Shown: piece by piece, positions 1,811 through 28,402 of the stretch
Position numbering within the stretch: the stretch's first letter is position 1
Layout of the letters: the number at the start of each line of letters is the position of its first letter
Made by a program: the position numbers and the translations under genes
Origin: an uncultured Candidatus Saccharibacteria bacterium
Lineage (GTDB): Bacteria > Patescibacteriota > Minisyncoccia > Phycocordibacterales > UBA2100
Assembly: GCA_964520015.1 (NCBI GenBank)
Contig: CAZFMA010000027.1
Coordinates: forward strand, 1 to 32,117
Direction of reading: 5' to 3'
DNA: 32,117 bases
The notes under the pieces: generated by a model
The model's database searches: none
Told to the model about the DNA's origin: nothing
What the model saw: the letters and a program-made list of their open reading frames with translations, nothing else

Positions 1811-1888
1811 CGGGGAGAATTGTACGCATATCTCTCAAATAGTCGAGAATTCCTGATTTTAGCCGTCATGGTAGAGTAGTGGTATGGA

Positions 1889-1966
1889 CCCCGTTAGAAG
1901 CTTCGAGAATTGTGCCTCGGTCGGCATTATTGAAAAACTTTTAATATCTTATGGCTTCTAACGGGG
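1889..1966. mobile_element. Family-1 palindromic-terminus element, copy 2
   Basis: Arms CCCCGTTAGAAGC (1889-1901) and GCTTCTAACGGGG (1954-1966) are exact reverse complements around a 52-nt AT-rich core. TGGA flanks both sides (1885-1888, 1967-1970). Confidence 0.65.
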
Positions 1967-2298
1967 TGGATTTGGCGCAGAAAAGGTGTGTTGCATGCGA
2001 AGGTGGGGCACAGCCCATGACTTCTATGGAGGCAGAAGCAATGTTCAGCCATGTGAAAGACTGGATACTTTCTCCAGATAGCAAAAACATCTCCAAGCAG
2101 TTCAAATTCAAAAATTTTAAAGATGCAATGATGTTCGCAAATAAGATAGGAGACATTGCAGAATCGGAAGGACATCATCCTGACCTCTTGATCGGATGGG
2201 GAAGAGTCGGCGTAGAGCTTTCGACCCACGCCATCAAGGGCCTTTCCGAAAACGATTTCATTATCGCGGCAAAGATTGACTTGATTGAAAAAGGATAG
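1951..2298 (+). CDS. phhB: Pterin-4-alpha-carbinolamine dehydratase (PCD/DCoH)
   Basis: 115-aa ORF with the ESEGHHPDL motif and a typical PCD length. The start is ambiguous: ATG 1951 lies inside the element, and GTG 1966 is formed at the element end. Confidence 0.85.
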   Translation: MASNGVDLAQKRCVACEGGAQPMTSMEAEAMFSHVKDWILSPDSKNISKQFKFKNFKDAMMFANKIGDIAESEGHHPDLLIGWGRVGVELSTHAIKGLSENDFIIAAKIDLIEKG

Positions 2299-2431
2299 TA
2301 TAGTCTCGTTCCTTGTTCTTTGAGAAAAAAGTATTGCCGCAGCGCAAAGGAGCTTGAGATCAGGCTCTTTCCCGCTGTGGCAAACTCCGGATGAGCCGGA
2401 GAGCCAGCAGCGCAACAGAAGGAACTCCCAC

Positions 2432-3088
2432 ATGAGTGGCACTCCCTTCTCGACCGGGCAGCTCGGCAAGCTGCAGAACATCGTCAATATCGGCATCGCC
2501 ACGGCGCTGCCGAAGGTGGCGAAGCGTTTCGAGCCCAAGAGCACCCTCAAGGCGCTCGAGGGCAAGGGTGAAGTGTTTGCCGGCCGTATCGAGGGCGCTC
2601 TCGAGAAGGCCATCACGAGCATGCTCGTGTTGCGCCGCATCGGCACGGCGACCGTCGTACTCGACGGGCCGCACGACCCCGACTCCTACCACCGGACCCG
2701 CGAGGGCCTCTGGGTCTACGGCGACTATCGGAGCCGCATCGTCGCCGAGGCGAAGCCGACTCCGGCAGGTACGACCTTCAAGGTCGACATCGCCGAGATC
2801 GGGCAGGAGGGCGGCGCGACGGACGAGGAGATCGAGGACGCGTTGCCCAAGAACCACCTCTTCGGTGAGTCGCAGGTCTGCGCCGTCATCGCGGGCCTCA
2901 TCGCCAAGCAGCCGCGCGGCGAGGAAGGCGACCTCGACAATCGGGGCTATGCCAATCTCTTCTACACGTCTTCCTGCGTCGTCAACGTCGACTGGGGCGC
3001 CGTCCGCCGGGAGTGGAACGTCATCACGTGGAATCGCGACGACAGCAGGTGGGGCGCTGGCGTTCGCGTCCTGTCTCCCGCCAACTGA
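2432..3088 (+). CDS. DGR target (variable) protein with C-terminal VR
   Basis: The ORF ends in the VR. I prefer ATG 2432, which is preceded by AGAAGGAA, over the TTG at 2354 in the ORF track. About 65 percent GC, so spurious ORFs fill the other frames. No signal peptide or TM segment is visible. Confidence 0.8.
   Translation: MSGTPFSTGQLGKLQNIVNIGIATALPKVAKRFEPKSTLKALEGKGEVFAGRIEGALEKAITSMLVLRRIGTATVVLDGPHDPDSYHRTREGLWVYGDYRSRIVAEAKPTPAGTTFKVDIAEIGQEGGATDEEIEDALPKNHLFGESQVCAVIAGLIAKQPRGEEGDLDNRGYANLFYTSSCVVNVDWGAVRREWNVITWNRDDSRWGAGVRVLSPAN
2972..3083 (+). repeat. DGR variable repeat (VR)
   Basis: 112 nt align without gaps to 3416-3527. There are 15 differences, all at TR adenines. The VR covers the last 37 codons of the target gene. 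Confidence 0.92.
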
Positions 3089-3103
3089 CCCCTCGCTCAC
3101 TTT

Positions 3104-3122
3104 GTCCCGCCGGAGGCGGGAC
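3104..3122 (+). promoter_or_regulatory. GC-rich hairpin 20 nt downstream of VR (candidate DGR target-recognition hairpin)
   Basis: GTCCCGCC-GGA-GGCGGGAC: an 8-bp GC stem with a 3-nt loop. DGR systems are known to use a hairpin/cruciform 3' of the VR. Confidence 0.55.
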
Positions 3123-3174
3123 GGAATCTTCGGTCCCTTTGACACTGTGTCACTTGGGCCGAGGATTCTTTTTT

Positions 3175-3183
3175 TGATACAAT
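3175..3183 (+). promoter_or_regulatory. Extended -10 promoter element TGATACAAT, candidate promoter for the TR RNA
   Basis: Matches TGnTAnAAT. It follows the T-run after the target gene and lies about 230 nt upstream of the TR. Confidence 0.4.
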
Positions 3184-3415
3184 AGAGAAGAAATTTCCGG
3201 CACTGCGGCGGTTACGGCTTCCGCGTGGAGATTTTGGAACGAAGCGTGCCGGAATTCTTTTGGCTACGGCTTGAAGGCGCGCGCGTGCTTCGCTTTCAAC
3301 AAAAAACATTGGTCAGTTGGTATCCGCAATCGGTGGGCTTCGAGACCCCACGTCAGGTTCACTCCGGAGAGTATTCGACGGAGGGTGGCACGGATGGCTG
3401 CGGATACGAGAGGGC

Positions 3416-3527
3416 TCCTGCGTCGTCAACGTCAACTGGAACGCCGACAACCGGAAGTGGAACGTCAACACGTGGAATCGCGACGACAACAGGTGGAACG
3501 CTGGCAATCGCGTCCTGTCTCCCGAAA
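3416..3527 (+). repeat. DGR template repeat (TR)
   Basis: Invariant copy of the VR. It holds 30 adenines, many in AAC/AAT codons, and 15 of them are substituted in the VR. All 82 non-adenine positions are identical. Confidence 0.92.
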
Positions 3528-3538
3528 CTCCCAAGTTT

Positions 3539-3561
3539 CTCCCGCACTTACCGTGCGGGAG
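3539..3561. terminator. Hairpin after TR (CTCCCGCAC-TTACC-GTGCGGGAG) followed by TTTTCGTTT
   Basis: 9-bp stem with a T-rich tail on the plus strand. It overlaps the 3' end of the antisense Avd ORF. Confidence 0.45.
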
Positions 3562-3895
3562 TTTTCGTTTCGAGGCCTTTCTTCCAGCCACCTATCATGC
3601 GACCGAGCTCGTCGAGCCTTTCCGATAGAAGGGTGTACTTCTTAGTATCGATCGCGCAAAGCTCCCAAGCAATACGGAGTAGAAACTTCAACAAGTCAGT
3701 TTTCTTGAGCGCGGCGGTTATCGTAGGCAATTTTTCGTGCCTGCTCTGATAACTCGCGATGAAAAGGTATTCGAGTATAAGGATGAACGTCATGTCTATC
3801 TTATCGCCAAGCGTATATCGCGAGCTTTTGGGGAAGTCGTTCCGGAAGCCGTGCCAGAGTTTGTATACTGTCACTGTATGTTCGATAACAGGCAA
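3548..3895 (-). CDS. avd: Avd-like accessory variability determinant (four-helix-bundle / 23S rRNA IVS protein family)
   Basis: 115-aa basic ORF with [24 protein letters not shown] near the N-terminus and a GGWKKGL tail, both typical of this family. It uses a TTG start and lies between the TR and the RT, but on the opposite strand. Confidence 0.75.
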
Positions 3896-3924
3896 AATGC
3901 GTCGGTGGGGGGCATTCTAGGATT

Positions 3925-4920
3925 TTGTTCGCTCATACCTACGACGATATCATCTCCGTCGAGAATGTGCTCGGTGCGTGGAAGGAGTTCGTGAGAGGAA
4001 AGCGGAAGAAGAAAGACGTACAGAAATTCCAATACCGATTGATGGATAGCATTCTTGCACTCCATCGGGACTTGCAAGAAGGATCATACTGCCACGGCGG
4101 CTACCAGGCGTTTAAGATCAGCGATCCAAAGCCGCGCGACATCCACAAAGCAACAGTACGCGATCGCCTCGTTCACCACGCGTTGTACCGACAACTCTAC
4201 CCGTTCTTCGACCGTACCTTTATTTCCGATTCGTATTCTTGCAGGAAAGGTAAAGGTACACACCGCGCGATGAATCGCTTTCGCTCATTTGCGTACAAAG
4301 TCTCTAAGAACCACACGCGTACGTGCTGGGTCCTCAAGTGCGATATTCGCAAGTTCTTCGCCTCGATTGATCAGTCCATCCTACTGGGAATTATTGAACG
4401 ATATATTCCCGATCAAGATGTACGTTGGCTCATCGGACAAGTCGTCACTAGCTTCTCAACTACGGCAAGGCCGGGCCTTGCCGCATCGCGTGTTGGACTG
4501 CCACTCGGCAATCTCACAAGCCAACTTCTCGTCAACATCTACATGAACGAGTTCGATCAATTCGTAAAGCACAAACTGAAAGCGAAATACTATGTCCGTT
4601 ACGCCGACGATTTCGTGATTCTCTCGCATGACAGGAAACGACTCACATCAATAGGGCGATATATCGCTATGTTCTTACGGGAGCGGCTGAAGCTCGAATT
4701 GCACCCCAATAAACTATTCCTTAAGACACTTGCATCCGGCGTTGATTTTCTCGGCTGGGTTCATTTTCCCGATCATCGAGTCCTGCGGACGGCTACAAAA
4801 CGAAGAATGCTTAAACGCATGGAAGATTACGACAATGAAAATGTCATCAACTCATATCTCGGCATGCTCTCACACGGGAATGCGCGCAGACTTGTCGGGA
4901 AGATAAACAAAATCACGTGA
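3925..4920 (+). CDS. DGR-type reverse transcriptase
   Basis: 331-aa ORF with the RT motif 5 YVRYADDFVIL and the DGR-typical motif 4 LPLGNLTSQLL. There is no maturase or endonuclease extension. TTG start. Confidence 0.9.
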   Translation: MFAHTYDDIISVENVLGAWKEFVRGKRKKKDVQKFQYRLMDSILALHRDLQEGSYCHGGYQAFKISDPKPRDIHKATVRDRLVHHALYRQLYPFFDRTFISDSYSCRKGKGTHRAMNRFRSFAYKVSKNHTRTCWVLKCDIRKFFASIDQSILLGIIERYIPDQDVRWLIGQVVTSFSTTARPGLAASRVGLPLGNLTSQLLVNIYMNEFDQFVKHKLKAKYYVRYADDFVILSHDRKRLTSIGRYIAMFLRERLKLELHPNKLFLKTLASGVDFLGWVHFPDHRVLRTATKRRMLKRMEDYDNENVINSYLGMLSHGNARRLVGKINKIT

Positions 4921-5066: not shown

Positions 5067-6227
5067 ATGGCGTTTTCGCTCGATGGTCTGGTACAAAAAT
5101 TTTCCTCTCTCTTAGGTCAAGGTGTGAAGGGGGGAGGAGAGAGTGTCTTGGGAATTGATATTGGTGCCTCGAGCGCCAAGATCGTGCAACTACGCCCTTC
5201 CCGCGGGGCAGCGGTTCTTGAGACATATGGTGAAATAGCCCTCGGCCCGTTTGGCGGACAGCCGATAGGAAAAGCAGTGAAAATCTCGCCCGAAAAGACC
5301 GCGGAAGCACTCCTTGAAGTTATGCGCGAGGCCAATGTGACAGCGACCTCGGGTGGGCTTTCCATTCCGTTTTCTTCGAGTCTCGTCTCGGTCTTGGATT
5401 TGCCCAATGTCCAGCCGGAGCAGCTCAAGCGCATGATCCCCATTGAGGCGCGCAAGTATATTCCTATTCCGGTGAATGAAGTGACACTTGATTGGTTTGT
5501 GATCCCGCGCGAGGAAGGAGAGCAGAGCGCCTTTGATCGAGTGGAGAAAGAAACACCCCTGCAGGCAAAGGGACAGGAAGTGCTTCTCGTCGCAATCCAC
5601 AACGATGTACTCCAGAATTATCAAATCATTGCGGCAAACGCAGGTGTCACGATCAATTTTCACGAAATAGAGATTTTTAGCGCGATCCGCTCTTCGGCCG
5701 GGCATGGCATCGCCCCCGTCTTAATCGTTGATTTGGGTGCCGCGACGACGAAAATCTATATCGTTGAGCGGGGAATTGTGCGTCTTTCACATCTTCTCTC
5801 GATCGGGGGGCAACACATGACCGAGAACCTTGCGCGTTCTTTAAGTTGGGATTTTGAGAAAGCCGAACGCATCAAGCGTGAACATGGCCTCGTGACGTCG
5901 ACTGCGTATAGTCCCGAAGAGAACGACAAAATCAAAACCTCTTTGTTATCAACACTAACGCGTGTGTTTTCCGAAGTGAATCGGGTACTATTGAGCTACG
6001 GACAACGATACAATAAAAATGTATCGCGCGTGATCCTTGCGGGTGGCGGGGCGTCGCTTCTGGGATTGAGTGAGGTGGCACACAGCTCGCTTTCGGTTGA
6101 GGTAGAAATAGCGAACCCTTTTGTGCACGCTGAAGCGCCGGCGTTTCTTGAAAAGGTATTGCGCGACATTGGTCCGGGTTTTGCAGTTGCGGTGGGAGTC
6201 GCACTCCGCAAACTCAAGTCAAATTAA
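5067..6227 (+). CDS. pilM: Type IV pilus assembly ATPase-like protein PilM
   Basis: Actin-like fold signature (VLGIDIGASSAKIVQL, VDLGAATTKIYIV, ILAGGGASL). The TTG-start extension from 4935 is rejected because it runs through the repeat element. Confidence 0.85.
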   Translation: MAFSLDGLVQKFSSLLGQGVKGGGESVLGIDIGASSAKIVQLRPSRGAAVLETYGEIALGPFGGQPIGKAVKISPEKTAEALLEVMREANVTATSGGLSIPFSSSLVSVLDLPNVQPEQLKRMIPIEARKYIPIPVNEVTLDWFVIPREEGEQSAFDRVEKETPLQAKGQEVLLVAIHNDVLQNYQIIAANAGVTINFHEIEIFSAIRSSAGHGIAPVLIVDLGAATTKIYIVERGIVRLSHLLSIGGQHMTENLARSLSWDFEKAERIKREHGLVTSTAYSPEENDKIKTSLLSTLTRVFSEVNRVLLSYGQRYNKNVSRVILAGGGASLLGLSEVAHSSLSVEVEIANPFVHAEAPAFLEKVLRDIGPGFAVAVGVALRKLKSN

Positions 6228-6252: not shown

Positions 6253-6359
6253 GACCCAGCACCAATTTTGAAACTTTTGAAAATATGAAAAACTATCGCG
6301 TTCAGTCAAAAATAGCAATAGTTGGCATACCGTTCTGGCACTCAAAATTGGTGCTGGGT
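6253..6359. repeat. Family-2-related element, copy C (18-bp perfect inverted repeat)
   Basis: ACCCAGCACCAATTTTGA (6253-6270) and TCAAAATTGGTGCTGGGT (6342-6359) with a 71-nt spacer. The left arm resembles the left end of copy A (CCCAGCAGCACAATTT). Confidence 0.55.
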
Positions 6360-8198: not shown

Positions 8199-9968
8199 AT
8201 GCCGGCAGAGGGAACAATAACAACTGTTGCACCACATGCAGGAGATGCAGCCGGCGTCCCCATTCGCTCCCTTGGGGATACCAAGATTCCGTTCGAGACT
8301 CTGCGGTACATTCCGGAAGAGTCGGCGATGCACTATCGGTTGGTGCCGATCGGCGCCTCAGAAGGAGTGCTTGAAATTGGAATGCTTGATCCCGAGGATA
8401 TTCAGGGGATAGATGCGCTCAATTTTATTGCGCGTACCTCGGGGATGCCATTTAAGATTTTCCAGATTACCCAAGAAGATTTTGACAGGGTACTTGCTAT
8501 GTATCGCGGATTAGGAGGTGAAGTCGAGCAGGCAGTCACTGAGCTTGAGTCCGAAGCGAAAATGGAGAAAGGTAAGGGTCGCGAGAGCGCAGCTGGTGAG
8601 AGTGCGCCACTTGATCTTGAAGATCCTTCCATTGGGAAAGGGAAGGGATTAGGAATGGCAAAGATCCATGAAGATGCGCCCACAATCAAAATTGTTTCCA
8701 CGATTTTGCGCTACGCTGTCGAGGGTAGGGCATCTGATGTGCATATCGAGCCACAACCCAACGGCGTGCGGGTGCGCTACCGAGTGGATGGTGATCTGCA
8801 TACAAGCGTGGTTCTTCCCCTCAACACTCATCGCGCGCTTGTCGCGCGCGTAAAGGTCTTGGCAAGCATTCGGCTCGACGAAATGCGCAAACCGCAAGAT
8901 GGACGCTTTTCGGCGACAATCGATAATCGTCAGATCGACTTCCGCGTTTCGACATTTCCTTCATATAACGGTGAAAAAGTGGTGATCCGTATTCTTGATC
9001 GAGAACAGGGTTTTATCCCTCTTGATCGAATCGGTCTTACACCGCGCAATCTGACGCTTCTCAGGAATGCAGTAAAGCAGCCACACGGCCTTGTTTTGAT
9101 ATCAGGACCTACCGGATCCGGGAAATCGACAACACTCTACTCAATGCTCACCGAGGTTGATCGCGAGCACAAAAACGTTGTGTCTCTTGAGGACCCAATC
9201 GAATACTACGTTGATGGAGTAATTCAATCGCAGGTACATCCCGAAATTGGATATACCTTTGCCAACGGCTTACGCACAACGCTGCGCCAAGACCCGGATG
9301 TCATCATGGTGGGTGAAATACGCGACGGCGAAACGGCAAAGCTCGCGATTCAGGCGGCGCTCACTGGTCACCTGGTGCTTTCTACCATTCACACCAATGA
9401 CGCGGTGGGAGTGATACCCCGCCTCATTGACATGGGTGTCGAGCCGTATCTCATTCCTCCTGTTCTCATTCTTTCAATTGCGCAGCGCCTTTTGCGCACG
9501 TTTTGTGAGGACGGAGGCGCACAAGAAATCTCCATCGGCGCATCCGAACGAAAACGCATTGAAGAGCGGCTCTCCACTCTTCCCGAGCAGTATCGTTTCA
9601 AAATACCGGATACAGCGTATGAAGCGACACGCACGCCGACGTGTCCTACAGGCCTCAAGGGTCGCATGGCCGTTTTTGAGGTATTGGAAATGTCGCCGGC
9701 AATTGAGCAAATTATTCTCGAAAATCCCGTGGATTCGCGCATCTGGAAGGCTGCGCGCGAACAGGGAATGCTCACCATGCAGGAGGATGCTATGCTGAAA
9801 GCGTTTGAAAAGCATGTGCCGTTATCCGAAGTAAATACCCTCAGTACGCTATTACTTGCGGAAGAGGAAGAGGAAGAGAAAGAAACAAAAAACGAAATTG
9901 ATTCAGGAGCGGAGCCAGGAACCCCAGCCCCGCCTAAAACTGAAAACACGTCCGTTGAGGCCCGTTAG
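8199..9968 (+). CDS. pilB: Type IV pilus assembly ATPase PilB (GspE family)
   Basis: Walker A SGPTGSGKSTT, the GspE-family Asp/His boxes, and an N-terminal GspE_N-like region. The stop codon TAG lies inside the left arm of family-1 copy 3. Confidence 0.9.
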   Translation: MPAEGTITTVAPHAGDAAGVPIRSLGDTKIPFETLRYIPEESAMHYRLVPIGASEGVLEIGMLDPEDIQGIDALNFIARTSGMPFKIFQITQEDFDRVLAMYRGLGGEVEQAVTELESEAKMEKGKGRESAAGESAPLDLEDPSIGKGKGLGMAKIHEDAPTIKIVSTILRYAVEGRASDVHIEPQPNGVRVRYRVDGDLHTSVVLPLNTHRALVARVKVLASIRLDEMRKPQDGRFSATIDNRQIDFRVSTFPSYNGEKVVIRILDREQGFIPLDRIGLTPRNLTLLRNAVKQPHGLVLISGPTGSGKSTTLYSMLTEVDREHKNVVSLEDPIEYYVDGVIQSQVHPEIGYTFANGLRTTLRQDPDVIMVGEIRDGETAKLAIQAALTGHLVLSTIHTNDAVGVIPRLIDMGVEPYLIPPVLILSIAQRLLRTFCEDGGAQEISIGASERKRIEERLSTLPEQYRFKIPDTAYEATRTPTCPTGLKGRMAVFEVLEMSPAIEQIILENPVDSRIWKAAREQGMLTMQEDAMLKAFEKHVPLSEVNTLSTLLLAEEEEEEKETKNEIDSGAEPGTPAPPKTENTSVEAR

Positions 9969-10034
9969 AGGCTTCGTGTATTGAAAACAAAAGATCCTAT
10001 GAACCAAGACAAAAATAAAGAGGCCTCTAACGGG
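9961..10034. mobile_element. Family-1 palindromic-terminus element, copy 3
   Basis: CCCGTTAGAGGC (9961-9972) and GCCTCTAACGGG (10023-10034) around a 50-nt core. Compared with copy 2, the arm change A to G is matched by T to C. The core shares TTCG.G.ATTGAAAA with copy 2. Confidence 0.6.
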
Positions 10035-10436
10035 GTGAATGATACATCCCACAAAGGAACAGTTCTCTTGCTCGATGATGATAAGTTTCTCTTGGATATG
10101 TATATTGCGAAATTTACCGCCGCAGGATTTGTCGTTGAAGCATGCTTATCGAGTACAATCGCCCTCACAACTCTGCGAAGCGGTTTAGAGCCCACGGTGA
10201 TCCTTTTTGATATTACGATGCCAGAATTAGACGGACTCTCCTTCTTAAGAACACTCTCCAGTGAAAAATTGGCACCGAATGCACTCAAAATTGCTCTCTC
10301 AAATCAGGATAATGAAGCAGAAAAGACAGAGGCACTCAAATTGGGGGCAGCGCGTTATATTATAAAAGCGAGCATGATTCCTTCTGAAGTTGTCACTGCC
10401 GTTGAAGAAGAGCTCGCTCACAGTCAATCACACTAG
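9999..10436 (+). CDS. Stand-alone response-regulator receiver domain (CheY-like)
   Basis: VLLLDDD, FDITMPELDG and a conserved Lys region. The start is uncertain: TTG 9981, ATG 9999 (both inside the element) or GTG 10035 at the element edge. Confidence 0.75.
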   Translation: MNQDKNKEASNGVNDTSHKGTVLLLDDDKFLLDMYIAKFTAAGFVVEACLSSTIALTTLRSGLEPTVILFDITMPELDGLSFLRTLSSEKLAPNALKIALSNQDNEAEKTEALKLGAARYIIKASMIPSEVVTAVEEELAHSQSH

Positions 10437-20660: not shown

Positions 20661-20665
20661 TATAA

Positions 20666-20798
20666 CCCATACACCAACATTGGCATTGTTTCTTACTGCG
20701 CCCCCTATCTGGGTCCAGAAGATGGTTATAGATGCAGGCGGCATGGCTTCTCTCCACTAGAAGGTTGAAACGCAGTGATGCCAATGTTGGTGTCGGGG
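20666..20798. mobile_element. Family-2 inverted-repeat element, copy B
   Basis: The 21-nt ends CCCATACACCAACATTGGCAT and ATGCCAATGTTGGTGTCGGGG match at 19 of 21 positions (16 perfect), with a 91-nt spacer. TATAA is repeated at 20661-20665 and 20799-20803. Confidence 0.65.
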
Positions 20799-20834
20799 TA
20801 TAATCCTAGAATGGAACCGACTACAGGAGGCTCA

Positions 20835-21835: not shown

Positions 21836-22918
21836 ATGCCAGAAGAGCAACCTAAATTCGATCATCGTGTCACAAATCCCGATCCTCATATCGTGGCACT
21901 TTTGGCGTCCATAGATGAGATGAGAGGCGTATTTCGCGTCGGTTTGCGCATGACACCGCAGGCCATTACCAGTCTGCGCAGGTCAGTCTTAATAACCTCA
22001 GCCGGTTCCTCAACCCGCATTGAAGGAGCAAGGCTCTCTGATGAGGAAGTGAGAAAAATAATGCAGGGACTCAAAATTCAAAAGTTTGCCGATCGCGATT
22101 CGCAGGAAGTGCAAGGTTATCTCGAAACGCTTCAAAACGTATTTGAGGATTACAAGACGATGCCGCTTCGCGATGGGATGATTAAGTCGCTCCATAAGGA
22201 ACTCCTCAAGTATTCAACGAAGGATGATGTGCATCGCGGCGACTGGAAGCAAAAGGAAAACGTTGTGGGCATCTTCGATAAGGATGGGCAGGTCGCTCGA
22301 ATCATGTTCGAGACAACGCCCGCATATCTTACGGGAAAAGAAATGACGGAACTCCTCGACTGGACGTATGAGGCCCTCGAAAAGGAGCGCTTCCATCCGC
22401 TTCTCATACTAGCGAATTTCATCATCGAGTTTCTGAGAATTCATCCGTTTGAAGACGGCAACGGGCGACTCTCCCGCGTCCTCTCAAATCTCTTGCTTCT
22501 GCGCTCTGGCTACACATTCGTAGAGTACGTGTCGCACGAACAGATCATCGAGGCTCGAAAGGACGAATATTATTTCGCACTGCGCGCATCGCAAGAAACG
22601 TTCAAGTCGCAAAAGAAGCCTGTAGGAGACAGGGAGACGATTGCGCCATGGCTCAACTTCTTTCTCTCTGTCGTGAAGAAACAGGCCGCAGATGCGATAG
22701 CGCTCATCGAGGATGAGACACAGGGGGATATGTTGTCGCCAAAACAAAAAGCGGTCTTCGAATACCTCTCAAAAGTGCGTGAGGGGATCCGCATGGAGAT
22801 CGCTAGAGCGACCGGTATTCTTTTGCCGACGGTAAGTAAGGCTCTTGAGCGGCTAGTTGAACTTGGAAAGATCAAGCGCCTAGGTCGCGGCCGCGCGACG
22901 CGGTATCAGAAAATCTGA
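21836..22918 (+). CDS. Fic-family protein (AMPylase-type) with C-terminal winged-helix domain
   Basis: Fic motif HPFEDGNGRLSR. The N-terminal STRIEG matches the (S/T)xxxE(G/N) auto-inhibitory helix motif. The C-terminal HTH-like region ends in RLGRGRATRYQK. Confidence 0.88.
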   Translation: MPEEQPKFDHRVTNPDPHIVALLASIDEMRGVFRVGLRMTPQAITSLRRSVLITSAGSSTRIEGARLSDEEVRKIMQGLKIQKFADRDSQEVQGYLETLQNVFEDYKTMPLRDGMIKSLHKELLKYSTKDDVHRGDWKQKENVVGIFDKDGQVARIMFETTPAYLTGKEMTELLDWTYEALEKERFHPLLILANFIIEFLRIHPFEDGNGRLSRVLSNLLLLRSGYTFVEYVSHEQIIEARKDEYYFALRASQETFKSQKKPVGDRETIAPWLNFFLSVVKKQAADAIALIEDETQGDMLSPKQKAVFEYLSKVREGIRMEIARATGILLPTVSKALERLVELGKIKRLGRGRATRYQKI

Positions 22919-22921
22919 CCT

Positions 22922-25042
22922 ATGTTTTCGCGAGAAGAGCGGGTCGAGATTTTCAGATCCCTCTTCAGGGGGCGCGAAGACGTGTTTGCACGACGATGGG
23001 AGAAGTGGAGTGGTGGTGTGAGCGGATATGCGCCCATGTATGCGGATCAAGATAAGGAATCATACGCCCCGCTCACGACAGGATGGATTGAGAAACACCT
23101 CATTGGTACTGCAACACTTGGAGCATATCCGTTGCTTAAGGACAATACGTCACTTTTCATCGTCGCTGATTTCGATGGAGATAGCTGGCGCAAGGCCGTC
23201 CAGAAATTTCTTGATGTGTGCAAAAAGCACGAACTCCATGTTGCCGTAGAGCGATCGCGTTCCGGAAAAGGCGCACATGTGTGGTGCTTTTTCTCTGCAT
23301 CATATCCTGCATACAAAAGCCGCCGCATTTTCCTCGCACTGCTGCGCGAAGCAGGATGCATTGACCCGCTGGAAAAGAACGAGGGATTCGACCGTCTGTT
23401 TCCGAATCAGGACTACTTGTCAGGTAAAGGACTTGGAAATCTCATCGCGCTGCCACTTCAGGGAGAATCGAGAAAGCGTGGCAACACTGTTTTCCTCGAT
23501 CCGGACAACAATTTTAATATCGTAGCCGACCAATGGCAATACCTACATGATATCCCGCGGGCTAGTATGGAGGAGCTTGACCATCTAGCGAGTCTGGACT
23601 TTCCTGCAGAAGAAAAGTCTCCCTCGAAACCCGCCCGCTTTGGTAAGACACTTGTTCTGACGCTCGAAAGCACGATTTCAATCCCCAAAAACATTCTGCC
23701 ACCCCACCTCGCTTCGTTCTTGCGGGAAGAACTCAACATTCTCAATATCGGCTACATCGTCAAAGAACGTGCGGGTCTGCCGACCTATGGCGAAAAGAAA
23801 TTTATCAAGACGCTGGAACAGACCGCCGACGCAATTCTCGTACCCCGCAGGTTCCTCAAAAGTCTCTATGCATGGCTCGACGAACGAAAAATCAAATATC
23901 GCATCATCGATAATCGATTGACGCTCGACCCTGTCGGGCTCCGGTCCACGCACACTATGCTGTCCTATCAGGAATCGGCAGTAGCCGCCTTTGATTCAAA
24001 GGAGCAAGGAATTCTCGTAGCCCCTGCAGGCGCGGGAAAAACATTTATGGGACTTGAAATCATCGCGCGGAAAAAGCAACCTGCGATAATTCTGACGCAC
24101 CGCAGACAGATATACGACCAGTGGCTGGAGCGAGTCGAGCATGGCTTTGGAATTCCTAAAACCAAGATCGGACAAATCGGCGGAGTGAAGAAAAATCCAA
24201 GCCAACCGATCACAGTCGCTATGGTACAAACACTCGCGCGTATGAAAGACATACATACGATCGCGGCTCAATTCGGCATGGTTCTTATTGACGAATGTCA
24301 CCATATGCCATCACGGATGTTCCGCGATGTGATTTCGAAATTCCCTGCACGGTATCGATTCGGACTCACCGCGACTCCATCGCGTAAGTATAATGACGAG
24401 AAATTAATTGGAGCATATCTTGGAGAGATTATTCACACGATCGACAAGGCAGAGATGCAAAGAGTTCCACAATCGCACGAACAAGTAGAGGACAGCGATG
24501 CAGTCGTCGTGAGGACGACAAGTCTTGCAACGCCATTCGGTACCTCGTCCCGTGATTTTCAACTTATATCGAAAGTACTTTCAAGCGACGCAAACCGAAA
24601 CGCGCTGATCGCCGCGGATATCGCGCGTGAGGCGCGGGAAGGCAGGAAATGTCTCGTGCTCACGGAGCGCAAGGAGCATGCGGAAATGCTTCGGGCATAT
24701 TTGCGACGCGATTTCGAGACAATCATGTTTTCCGGCGACCTGTCATCACGGCAACGCGCCTTCGCGCTGCAAAAAATAAAAGGTGGGAGGTTCCGTATCC
24801 TGATCGCGACGGGACAAATTCTGGGAGAAGGGGCAGACATAGCAGATCTTGAAGTTCTCTTTCTCGCATTTCCAGTTTCATTCCACGGCAAGCTTGCGCA
24901 ATATATCGGGCGTATTCGCAGGGAGGGAGGTGCCAAGAAAGTCTATGATTACCGGGATGCGGACGTACCGATCCTCGAAAAACTCTGGAAGAAACGAGCA
25001 ACGTATTATCGTAAGAACGATTTCGCAATAGAGGGTGTGTAA
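22922..25042 (+). CDS. Archaeo-eukaryotic primase (prim-pol) domain fused to an SF2 DEAD/DEAH-type helicase
   Basis: The N-terminus has FRGREDVFARRWE, ADFDGD (DxD) and SRSGKGAHVW (sGxGxH). Helicase motifs are APAGAGKT (I), LIDECHH (II), GLTATP (III) and QYIGRIRR (VI). It starts 3 nt after the Fic stop. Confidence 0.85.
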   Translation: MFSREERVEIFRSLFRGREDVFARRWEKWSGGVSGYAPMYADQDKESYAPLTTGWIEKHLIGTATLGAYPLLKDNTSLFIVADFDGDSWRKAVQKFLDVCKKHELHVAVERSRSGKGAHVWCFFSASYPAYKSRRIFLALLREAGCIDPLEKNEGFDRLFPNQDYLSGKGLGNLIALPLQGESRKRGNTVFLDPDNNFNIVADQWQYLHDIPRASMEELDHLASLDFPAEEKSPSKPARFGKTLVLTLESTISIPKNILPPHLASFLREELNILNIGYIVKERAGLPTYGEKKFIKTLEQTADAILVPRRFLKSLYAWLDERKIKYRIIDNRLTLDPVGLRSTHTMLSYQESAVAAFDSKEQGILVAPAGAGKTFMGLEIIARKKQPAIILTHRRQIYDQWLERVEHGFGIPKTKIGQIGGVKKNPSQPITVAMVQTLARMKDIHTIAAQFGMVLIDECHHMPSRMFRDVISKFPARYRFGLTATPSRKYNDEKLIGAYLGEIIHTIDKAEMQRVPQSHEQVEDSDAVVVRTTSLATPFGTSSRDFQLISKVLSSDANRNALIAADIAREAREGRKCLVLTERKEHAEMLRAYLRRDFETIMFSGDLSSRQRAFALQKIKGGRFRILIATGQILGEGADIADLEVLFLAFPVSFHGKLAQYIGRIRREGGAKKVYDYRDADVPILEKLWKKRATYYRKNDFAIEGV

Positions 25043-28085: not shown

Positions 28086-28254
28086 TGCGACAGTTTAAAC
28101 TCCTCGGCCGCTTAATGAAAGTGGTGTCTTGAGAGCTGGTGCAAGTCCTGCCCCCGACAAAAAACACGCGATTTTCATCTCGATTACAACACACATTGCT
28201 TCCGAGCACGAGAATCAGACTTGCGCTGAATATATCTTGGCAATGCTGTGCCAT

Positions 28255-28286: not shown

Positions 28287-28330
28287 GAGTGACTATGGGG
28301 ACCGGAACTGGTTCCGGCATCACAATGCTG

Positions 28331-28402
28331 TTGCGGGGGCGGGACTTGCACCCGCGACCTCAAGGTTATGAGCCTTGCGAGCTACTACTGCTCCACCCCG
28401 CT
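28331..28402 (-). tRNA. tRNA-Met (CAU), initiator-like
   Basis: Manual fold: AGCGGGG-TG-GAGC-AGTAGTA-GCTC-G-CAAGG-CTCATAA-CCTTG-AGGTC-GCGGG-TGCAAGT-CCCGC-CCCCGCA-A. It closely parallels E. coli tRNA-fMet, including an unpaired 1-72 position (A x A). CCA is not encoded. Confidence 0.8.

Follow-up and report, generated by a model that had tools for sequence, protein, structure and literature searches.

A palindromic element at the start of a pterin-4a-carbinolamine dehydratase gene belongs to a cross-phylum family enriched at gene starts

Introduction

A transposon that inserts at the start of a gene is usually taken to have knocked that gene out. Among mobile elements with short ends or palindromic repeats, piggyBac duplicates TTAA at its target, and piggyBac/IS1380 ends begin CCC...GGG; REP/REPIN repeats have a conserved GTAG-type tetranucleotide and a RAYT gene flanked by the same repeats, and the known single-strand (Y1) transposons make, to our knowledge, no target duplication. 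[quoted passage not shown] Here, we describe a 78-bp palindromic, MITE-like element at positions 1889–1966 of contig CAZFMA010000027.1 from an uncultured Candidatus Saccharibacteria bacterium; the whole 32,117-nt stretch that was analysed is referred to as the window. The element lies at the 5′ end of the PCD (pterin-4a-carbinolamine dehydratase) gene and belongs to a family found at many unrelated sites. Taken as a whole, the explanation that we consider highly probable is that a mobile palindrome inserted at the PCD start and that the start codon was rebuilt in the process.

Results

Anatomy of the element at the PCD start

The element begins with the left terminal inverted repeat CCCCGTTAGAAGC (1889–1901; all features are on the plus strand unless stated otherwise) and ends with its exact reverse complement, the right terminal inverted repeat GCTTCTAACGGGG (1954–1966). 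Between them lies a 52-nt AT-rich interior (1902–1953), which closes with an in-frame ATG (1951–1953), and TGGA stands on both sides as the left (1885–1888) and right (1967–1970) target-site duplication. Arms, core and flanks had been proposed in an earlier sequence-only reading of the window and lie exactly where it placed them; one further pair, A1888–T1967, extends the perfect arms to 14 nt. The same reading had stated that removal of the element together with one repeat gives a canonical PCD N-terminus. Deleting 1889–1970 in silico indeed yields GGTATGGATTTGGCGCAG, with the translation MDLAQKRCVACEGGAQ, and relatives carry the uninterrupted ATGGAYTTGGCNCAG (MDLAQK).

The original PCD start, ATG 1884–1886, corresponds in the alignment to the ATG of ATGGAYTTGGCN in orthologues with an empty site, L121 and L128–L134 (L numbers denote the loci compared), and now opens an upstream open reading frame (uORF). 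The insertion point is inside PCD codon 2, 3′ of ATGGA, and of the start codon TG alone is duplicated. The earlier reading described a split start codon; the original ATG survives. A 6-bp duplication (RTNNAY) was ruled out because in many copies the left and right hexamers do not agree in their outer bases; here they read ATGGAC and GTGGAT.

Perfect inverted repeats of at least 13 nt within 130 nt occur at seven places in the window, against a mean of 0.15 in simulated windows, and the 10-mer CCGTTAGAAG is present 11 times with at most one mismatch, where 1.4 occurrences are expected. The RNA fold of 1880–1975 has a free energy of −37.3 kcal/mol (z = −5.2); in it, ATG 1951 lies at the 3′ edge of the AT-rich loop, and the first G of GTG 1966, which is the last base of the right arm, is paired. 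An Rfam gathering scan of the window returned four tRNAs and nothing else. A role as a terminator was rejected, as no terminator-like site was found.

Empty and filled orthologous sites

Judged by its PCD homologues, the window belongs to Candidatus Kaiserbacteria. In the closest relative, L121 (= L128; 81% identity), the arginase gene, a divergent ComF-like gene, PCD and pilM follow one another as in the window, and the PCD junction is uninterrupted (...GTGATAGAGTAATGAA|ATGGACTTGGCACAG). About 20 more metagenomic PCD orthologues read ATGGAYTTRGCNCAG. Empty sites with the sequence ATGGAYTTGGCNCAG and the same promoter-like box upstream are present in L121, L128–L134, L136, L138, L140 and others; the junction reconstructed from the window thus exists in related genomes, and the claim of an insertion is borne out.

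Six filled PCD orthologues contain a homologous element of 78 or 81 nt at exactly the same position, with identical TGGA on both sides and alignable interiors (filled sites: L122, L123/L135, L124, L125 and L137). Decayed versions are found at PCD in two more distant orthologues, L126 and L127. Among the six orthologous copies, the arms are 96% and the interiors 59% identical, and the sequence around the internal ATG (TATGGC) is invariant. In the present data, the flanking 4-mers are not conserved independently of the element, and the sequences that read ATGGAYTTGGCN are orthologous. That 1889–1966 is an insertion can be regarded as very secure.

In a neighbour-joining tree of the 108-residue PCD protein, the filled copies are paraphyletic, with empty sites nested among them. 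The tree is weak; it suggests a single old insertion that was later lost cleanly at least three times, rather than at least six independent hits, and the alignable interiors point in the same direction. Exact-protein look-ups with three PCD start variants gave no match.

Two of the relatives hold a second copy of the family between PCD and pilM (L122, 3344–3421; L124, 3345–3422). These second copies are ~95% identical to each other, whereas the interiors of the PCD-start copies in the same two loci are only ~76% identical. Decay of the left arm is under way in both of the L124 copies.

A family of palindromes with shared ends

The family was collected by scanning one genome per species with the pattern CCCGTTAGARG-N40-70-CYTCTAACGGG, which matched at least 120 loci. 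All family figures come from the matches listed, which comprise 120 loci with 135 copies; the arms are present in all 135, as the retrieval pattern itself required. Family members have the ends YCCCGTTAGARG...CYTCTAACGGGR and duplicate TNNA within the palindromic target hexamer R|TNNA|Y. At least eight phyla are represented among the matches listed, with 69 loci from the candidate phyla radiation (CPR)/Patescibacteria, 16 from Planctomycetota, 6 each from Desulfobacterota-like bacteria and Gamma-/Pseudomonadota, 3 from Omnitrophota, 5 from other groups and 15 that are unclassified. Some metagenome-assembled genomes (MAGs) contain several loci (e.g. JACRFK01, CAYHQI01 and JAZDMB01). Only two matches lie in viral contigs, and the plasmid and phage collections contained no match to the family. 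One copy was recovered on a 1.1-kb contig labelled Nanoarchaeota (L105); this label is probably a binning error and not evidence for the element in archaea.

Copies range from 27 to ~150 bp, without a transposase gene inside. An extra pair outside the arms is C..G in 72 and T..A in 54 of the 135 copies; the identity of this pair is not fixed within an interior subfamily and is correlated with that of the base lying outside the duplication. Of the 135 copies, 79 are flanked by perfect direct repeats of 4 bp, a few have a 5-bp repeat (among them copy 1 of the window, described below), and 21 have 2–3 bp only. The 4-bp sequence varies by copy around the consensus TNNA, with T at the first position in 71 of 78 and A at the last in 69 of 78; a purine precedes it in 56 of 78 and a pyrimidine follows it in 57 of 78. 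The TGGA at PCD is hence not part of a longer conserved motif. Nested copies are frequent, and L093 shows both states, with an intact copy at 1279–1350 and another, at 865–1007, that carries a second element with the duplication CCTG.

The interiors are of two kinds: AT-rich and unstructured, as in the window copies, or GC-rich with two internal hairpins, which have been kept through many paired substitutions. No strand asymmetry was detected in the GC-rich interiors (G:T pairs, 36 versus 35; folding energy, p = 0.09), and permissive Rfam scans of two GC-rich copies gave chance-level matches only (E > 0.3). No description of the family was found in the literature, Pfam, NCBIfam, Rfam or the plasmid and phage collections, the arm sequence matching unrelated papers only; a literature search on MITEs in CPR bacteria and on TNNA targets returned nothing relevant.

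Copies at gene starts and in frame within genes

Read outward from the ends of the elements, 65 of 270 sequences begin with ATG or GTG, and 40 of these 65 open ORFs of at least 80 codons, compared with 23% of random ATG/GTG. After removal of copies within longer open frames, 33 of the 125 remaining copies (~26%) lie exactly on a gene start, where random use of the RTNNAY sites of these loci would place 2.6% (p = 1e-23), an enrichment of about tenfold over chance. The association with start codons put forward in the sequence-only reading is therefore real, but the target proper is the palindrome RTNNAY and not the start codon as such. Targeting and selection both fit this bias. The further suggestion of the sequence-only reading that the element is built to preserve expression of the gene it enters finds statistical support in the terminal pair: copies ending in T..A, which rebuild ATG, lie on starts in 27 of 53 cases, and those ending in C..G, which rebuild GTG, in 6 of 72 (p = 1e-7). 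Among 40 start-associated copies, 29 still have a recognisable old start codon at their far side, and a −10-like box lies 5–8 nt upstream of it in 13 of the 40, versus a baseline of 18%, which hints that start-associated copies sit at leaderless genes.

A further 23 of 122 copies lie inside frames that are open for at least 40 codons on each side, and 21 of the 23 keep the frame, their core length being a multiple of three. In all 14 copies inspected, in either orientation, one shared frame is used, encoding the peptide x-PVRS...(T/A)SNG-x, for which neither Pfam nor NCBIfam has a matching model. The Pfam domains of DnaE, CarB, MetRS, RsmH, UvrC and a pseudouridine synthase run across the inserted copy. 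In-frame copies at L020, L044, L048, L001, L023, L095, L008 and L041 lie within essential genes, to which they add 21–27 residues; hosts also include SecA and a leucyl aminopeptidase. A second frame is likewise stop-free in the arms, yet all copies use the same one.

Possible expression of the interrupted PCD gene

An extended −10-like box, TGgTAGAGT (1869–1877), ends 6 nt before the original ATG, and the arrangement TGnTAnnnT + 6 nt + ATG is found in all six filled orthologues and in the empty ones. Because this is the spacing expected of a leaderless mRNA, the box suggests a leaderless-type PCD promoter; a simple sigma-70 promoter scan did not report it, the −35 region being weak. From the original ATG, a uORF of 25 codons, MDPVRSFENCASVGIIEKLLISYGF (1884–1961), runs through the element to a TAA in the right arm (1959–1961). 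The uORF (MDPVRS...YGF, 25–26 codons) is stop-free to the same TAA in six of six orthologous copies, an outcome with a chance probability of 0.26–0.40 per sequence, and the other frames contain stops. The only length difference among these copies, 78 versus 81 nt, is 3 nt and keeps the frame. Element length places the uORF stop in the arm in the PCD copies, not family-wide.

As the sequence-only reading had stated, the PCD frame offers only two starts after the upstream stop, ATG 1951 (MASNGVDLAQ...) and GTG 1966; the uORF TAA lies 8 nt after the former and 4 nt before the latter. The PCD ORF from the element-internal ATG spans 1951–2298, with GTG 1966 as the alternative start, and matches Pfam Pterin_4a (E = 2.4e-29). 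The gene-caller product (P0001) starts MASNG, and the filled orthologues are likewise called from the internal ATG, which produces recurrent MASNGVDLAQKK N-termini. In L090, where a copy of the same subfamily lies upstream of a valyl-tRNA synthetase gene, the internal ATG is the only available start.

The element integrates at R|TNNA|Y and duplicates TNNA, here at A|TGGA|Y of a leaderless-looking PCD gene. As its last base is a purine and the duplicated bases start with TG, GTG 1966 arises at the right junction as a new start codon in the original frame. A second in-frame start, ATG 1951, which lies 15 nt upstream and adds MASNG, is supplied by the interior of this subfamily. The old promoter-like box and ATG stay in place, and the 25-codon uORF now opens there and runs through the element. 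We propose that ATG 1951 would be the main start and GTG 1966 a fallback, and ribosomes translating the uORF could melt the stem, arrive within 4–8 nt of the new starts and re-initiate. The choice of start and the leaderless transcript are predictions of this model.

Search for a mobilising enzyme

A search of the window and of the 120 loci of 8 kb (~0.9 Mb) revealed neither a transposase nor a full-length partner bearing these ends. Arm pairs lying 1–2.5 kb apart enclose host genes (for ValRS, a PHP-domain protein, Lgt and a sigma factor), and all-against-all clustering of the 1,349 ORFs of the 120 loci revealed no recurrent transposase family but housekeeping families instead. The clustering also gave a reverse transcriptase of the type found in diversity-generating retroelements (DGRs) in six loci, which we take as CPR background. 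In L123, the gene immediately downstream of PCD (3364–4011) is a Y1_Tnp gene of the IS200/RAYT type; it was rejected as the mover, the palindromes that flank it, TTGGACATCGGATGTCCAA, being unrelated to the arms. Given the 4-bp duplication at a palindromic target, the mover is presumed to be a DDE-type transposase that makes staggered cuts of 4 nt in duplex DNA.

Other copies and neighbouring loci in the window

The 32 kb of the window contain four copies of the family. Copy 1, an outer element TCCCGTTAGAAGT...ACTTCTAACGGGA (8–160), is flanked by a 5-bp duplication, TGGAA (3–7 and 161–165), and with its last A it provides the first base of the arginase-family ATG (160); the arginase start is empty in L121 (ggaaATGGAACGAAAT). 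Nested in it is a minimal copy of 29 nt (109–137), which consists of two arms and a GAA loop between CAAG repeats (105–108 and 138–141). Copy 3, GCCCGTTAGAGGC...GCCTCTAACGGGG (9960–10035), has the flanks TGAG/TGAA. The TAG in its left arm (9966–9968) ends pilB, its last G starts the GTG of a response-regulator gene (10035), and it too has an internal in-frame ATG, at 9999.

Other inverted repeats are also present. The repeat at 20665–20799, between an amidase (gatA-like) gene and the next ORF, has CCC...GGG ends (CCCATACACCAACATTGGCAT...ATGCCAATGTTGGTGTCGGGG) and stands between two TATAA sequences; it may represent a further MITE family that makes a T...A duplication. Downstream of pilM, an 18-nt perfect inverted repeat (ACCCAGCACCAATTTTGA...TCAAAATTGGTGCTGGGT) spans 6254–6359; an inverted repeat with the same ends (ACCCAGCACC/GGTGCTGGGT) occurs in the pilus gene cluster of L121, downstream of a pilO-like gene (5845–5945).

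PCD is followed in the window by a complete DGR (2354–4920). It comprises a target gene (2354–3088) with a variable repeat at ~2972–3080, a template repeat at ~3416–3524, a bAvd-like gene on the minus strand (3548–3895) and a reverse transcriptase gene (3925–4920), and all mismatches between the repeats are at template adenines. The retroelement is missing in L121, where pilM directly follows PCD. Further along, a ~22-nt piece of a tRNA-Met gene (28330–28402, minus strand) recurs in inverted orientation 177 nt from the gene (28135–28156 and 28334–28355) and could be an integration remnant. A Fic-domain gene followed by an AEP-TOTE primase–helicase fusion gene, whose domain is annotated as part of conflict systems, occupies 21836–25042; NUDIX and Pif1-like helicase genes lie downstream, and the region may be a defence island.

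Discussion

Insertion at a preferred palindromic target, with reconstruction of the start codon, accounts for the empty and filled PCD sites, and several observations weigh against parts of this account. A recognisable duplication is lacking in 31 of the 135 copies, and the window and the searched loci yielded no transposase or partner element. Copies of 27–29 nt hardly seem long enough for a paired-end transposase complex of the classical kind to assemble on duplex DNA. Arms that are far better conserved than the interior among orthologous copies are not what a purely selfish, decaying insertion predicts; this conservation and a paired change in L126 could reflect a function for the host, repair that uses one arm of the palindrome as template for the other, or renewed insertion. 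The tree, built on 108 residues, cannot separate one old insertion with precise losses from recurrent insertion. As to expression, the stem (−37 kcal/mol) begins 5 nt from the presumed 5′ end and takes in the first base of GTG 1966; initiation could therefore be inefficient both on a leaderless transcript and at the GTG.

That the inverted repeat and its TGGA flanks are a chance arrangement, or a conserved PCD 5′ motif unconnected with insertion, has only the small size of the repeat in its favour. The excess of inverted repeats and of the 10-mer over expectation, the lack of the repeat in most PCD orthologues and the same arms beside unrelated genes in at least eight phyla, with differing flanking 4-mers, leave this reading next to no credibility; the family scan, the variable flanking repeats and the orthologue comparison refute it. 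Nearly as improbable is removal of the element from RNA in the manner of an intron, which would restore AUGGAU... and make the DNA insertion silent in the mRNA. Excision of the element and one repeat would restore the original frame exactly, and the closed stem would bring both junctions side by side. Splicing would, however, make it needless for 21 of 23 coding-region copies to keep the frame and for these copies to be stop-free in the PVRS...SNG frame; the PCD copies moreover retain the ATG and the open uORF, and no ribozyme or intron model matches.

Two other readings merit more weight. A former mobile insertion may have been domesticated as a cis-regulatory hairpin whose stem, ATG and uORF the host keeps for control of PCD translation, for example through occlusion of the start codon that is relieved by uORF translation or by temperature. 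We judge this unlikely, although it is compatible with the insertion that we favour. The contrast between arm and interior identity, the conserved ATG and uORF frame with its frame-neutral 3-nt indel, the very stable stem and the L126 change of TTAG to TTGG in one arm with CTAA to CCAA in the other, which keeps the pairing, all speak for it. Yet the arms decay in L124, L125 and L127; at least three lineages nested among the filled ones are cleanly empty, so the element is dispensable; the same arms recur at hundreds of unrelated sites, coding regions included; templated repair within a palindrome can imitate compensatory change; and Rfam offers no match. The other reading concerns the mover: the element may travel as a single-stranded or cruciform hairpin, handled by an HUH/Y1-type or other structure-specific nuclease that recognises the closed stem. 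This is doubtful, if somewhat less so than domestication. Minimal copies of two arms and a 3-nt loop with a 4-bp flanking repeat (e.g. 109–137 in the window), the conservation across phyla of arms and complementarity alone, with interiors free to vary, the retention of hairpins in GC-rich interiors and the lack of a DDE partner in the loci searched count in its favour. Against it stand the 4-bp duplications at a palindromic target, which are what staggered cuts in duplex DNA typically leave, the equal treatment of both strands in the GC-rich interiors and the unrelated palindromes around the sole nearby Y1_Tnp gene (L123), while the minimal copies could be internal deletions that arose after insertion.

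Insertion of a mobile palindrome with a rebuilt start thus remains our preferred explanation, and the PCD locus illustrates what it implies: an insertion at a gene start has been tolerated, the start codon kept, and the element has survived speciation in Kaiserbacteria. CPR bacteria, Planctomycetota, Desulfobacterota, Omnitrophota and other groups have the same 11–13-nt ends in common, a quarter of the copies lie on start codons and others are in frame within essential enzymes; this suggests that a machinery for mobilisation is widely shared and has gone unrecognised. For annotation, the family is a source of error, as gene callers assign spurious MASNG- or TSNG-type N-termini and extra loops. 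It also makes two questions accessible to experiment, namely how a leaderless gene deals with a structured 5′ end that it has newly acquired and whether the transposition system actively targets start codons or transcription start sites. More tentatively, the family as a whole may be gene-adapted across phyla: its ends would either rebuild starts at RTNNAY or be read through, in either orientation, as a harmless PVRS...SNG loop, and, moved as hairpins, its copies would time and again give rise to new 5′ ends, uORFs and N-terminal extensions in the compact, leaderless-rich genomes of CPR bacteria. This generalisation is possible, but falls short of being the likelier outcome.

Comparison with known systems

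Several classes of structured element do not accommodate the family. An integron attC site was ruled out because the GTT/AAC boxes run in the opposite order to those of attC and because target duplications accompany the copies, and a known riboswitch, ribozyme, thermometer or small RNA because no Rfam covariance model matches the palindromes in the scans of the window and of two GC-rich copies. With REP/REPIN (RAYT) repeats and IS200/IS605-derived palindromes, the family shares a short palindrome with the stem as the conserved unit, tiny size and many dispersed copies. Those elements, however, are not known to make a target duplication, and neither their tetranucleotide nor a RAYT gene was seen here; membership was ruled out by the 4-bp duplication and by the Y1_Tnp gene of L123, which lies beside the unrelated TTGGACATCGGATGTCCAA.

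A possible likeness to piggyBac/IS1380 lies in the 4-bp T-N-N-A duplication and the CCC...GGG ends, and seamless loss of the piggyBac kind would explain clean empty PCD sites among filled ones. The target here is nevertheless the degenerate TNNA rather than TTAA, an extra variable Y..R pair lies outside CCC...GGG, and no IS1380-like or piggyBac-like transposase was seen near any copy in the 120 loci. As regards expression, the short uORF that ends near candidate starts and the −10 box 6 nt before the ATG recall translational coupling (termination–reinitiation) and leaderless translation; the uORF, however, was made here by a transposon insertion, and its use is suggested by the conserved open frame.

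NCBIfam and Pfam include RPE domain models, and the peptides encoded by the present family match no model in either database. The family nonetheless resembles RPEs in that copies lie in frame in DnaE, CarB, MetRS, RsmH, UvrC and SecA, encode a conserved peptide (PVRS...SNG) and have no known transposase. It differs in being about half the length of RPEs, in its clear 4-bp target duplication, in its distribution across phyla (CPR, Planctomycetota and others) rather than in Rickettsia, and in its preference for start codons, none being mentioned for RPEs in PMC10969869.

The closest resemblance is to MITEs. Like them, the family is small (27–150 bp), has multiple dispersed copies per genome with perfect terminal inverted repeats and lacks transposase coding capacity; short target-site duplications are specific to each copy, empty sites exist (PCD, arginase and L093), copies are nested, and transcripts would contain a long stem-loop. 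Four features set it apart. No parent insertion sequence (IS), and so no autonomous IS with matching ends, was found in the window or the 120 loci, and the same 11–13-nt ends recur in at least eight phyla rather than in one genus or family. Moreover, a quarter of the copies coincide exactly with a start codon, which their terminal base completes, and minimal copies measure only 27–29 nt. We thus describe, as a family for which we found no published account, a cross-phylum mobile palindrome whose ends regenerate start codons or are read through as a neutral peptide.

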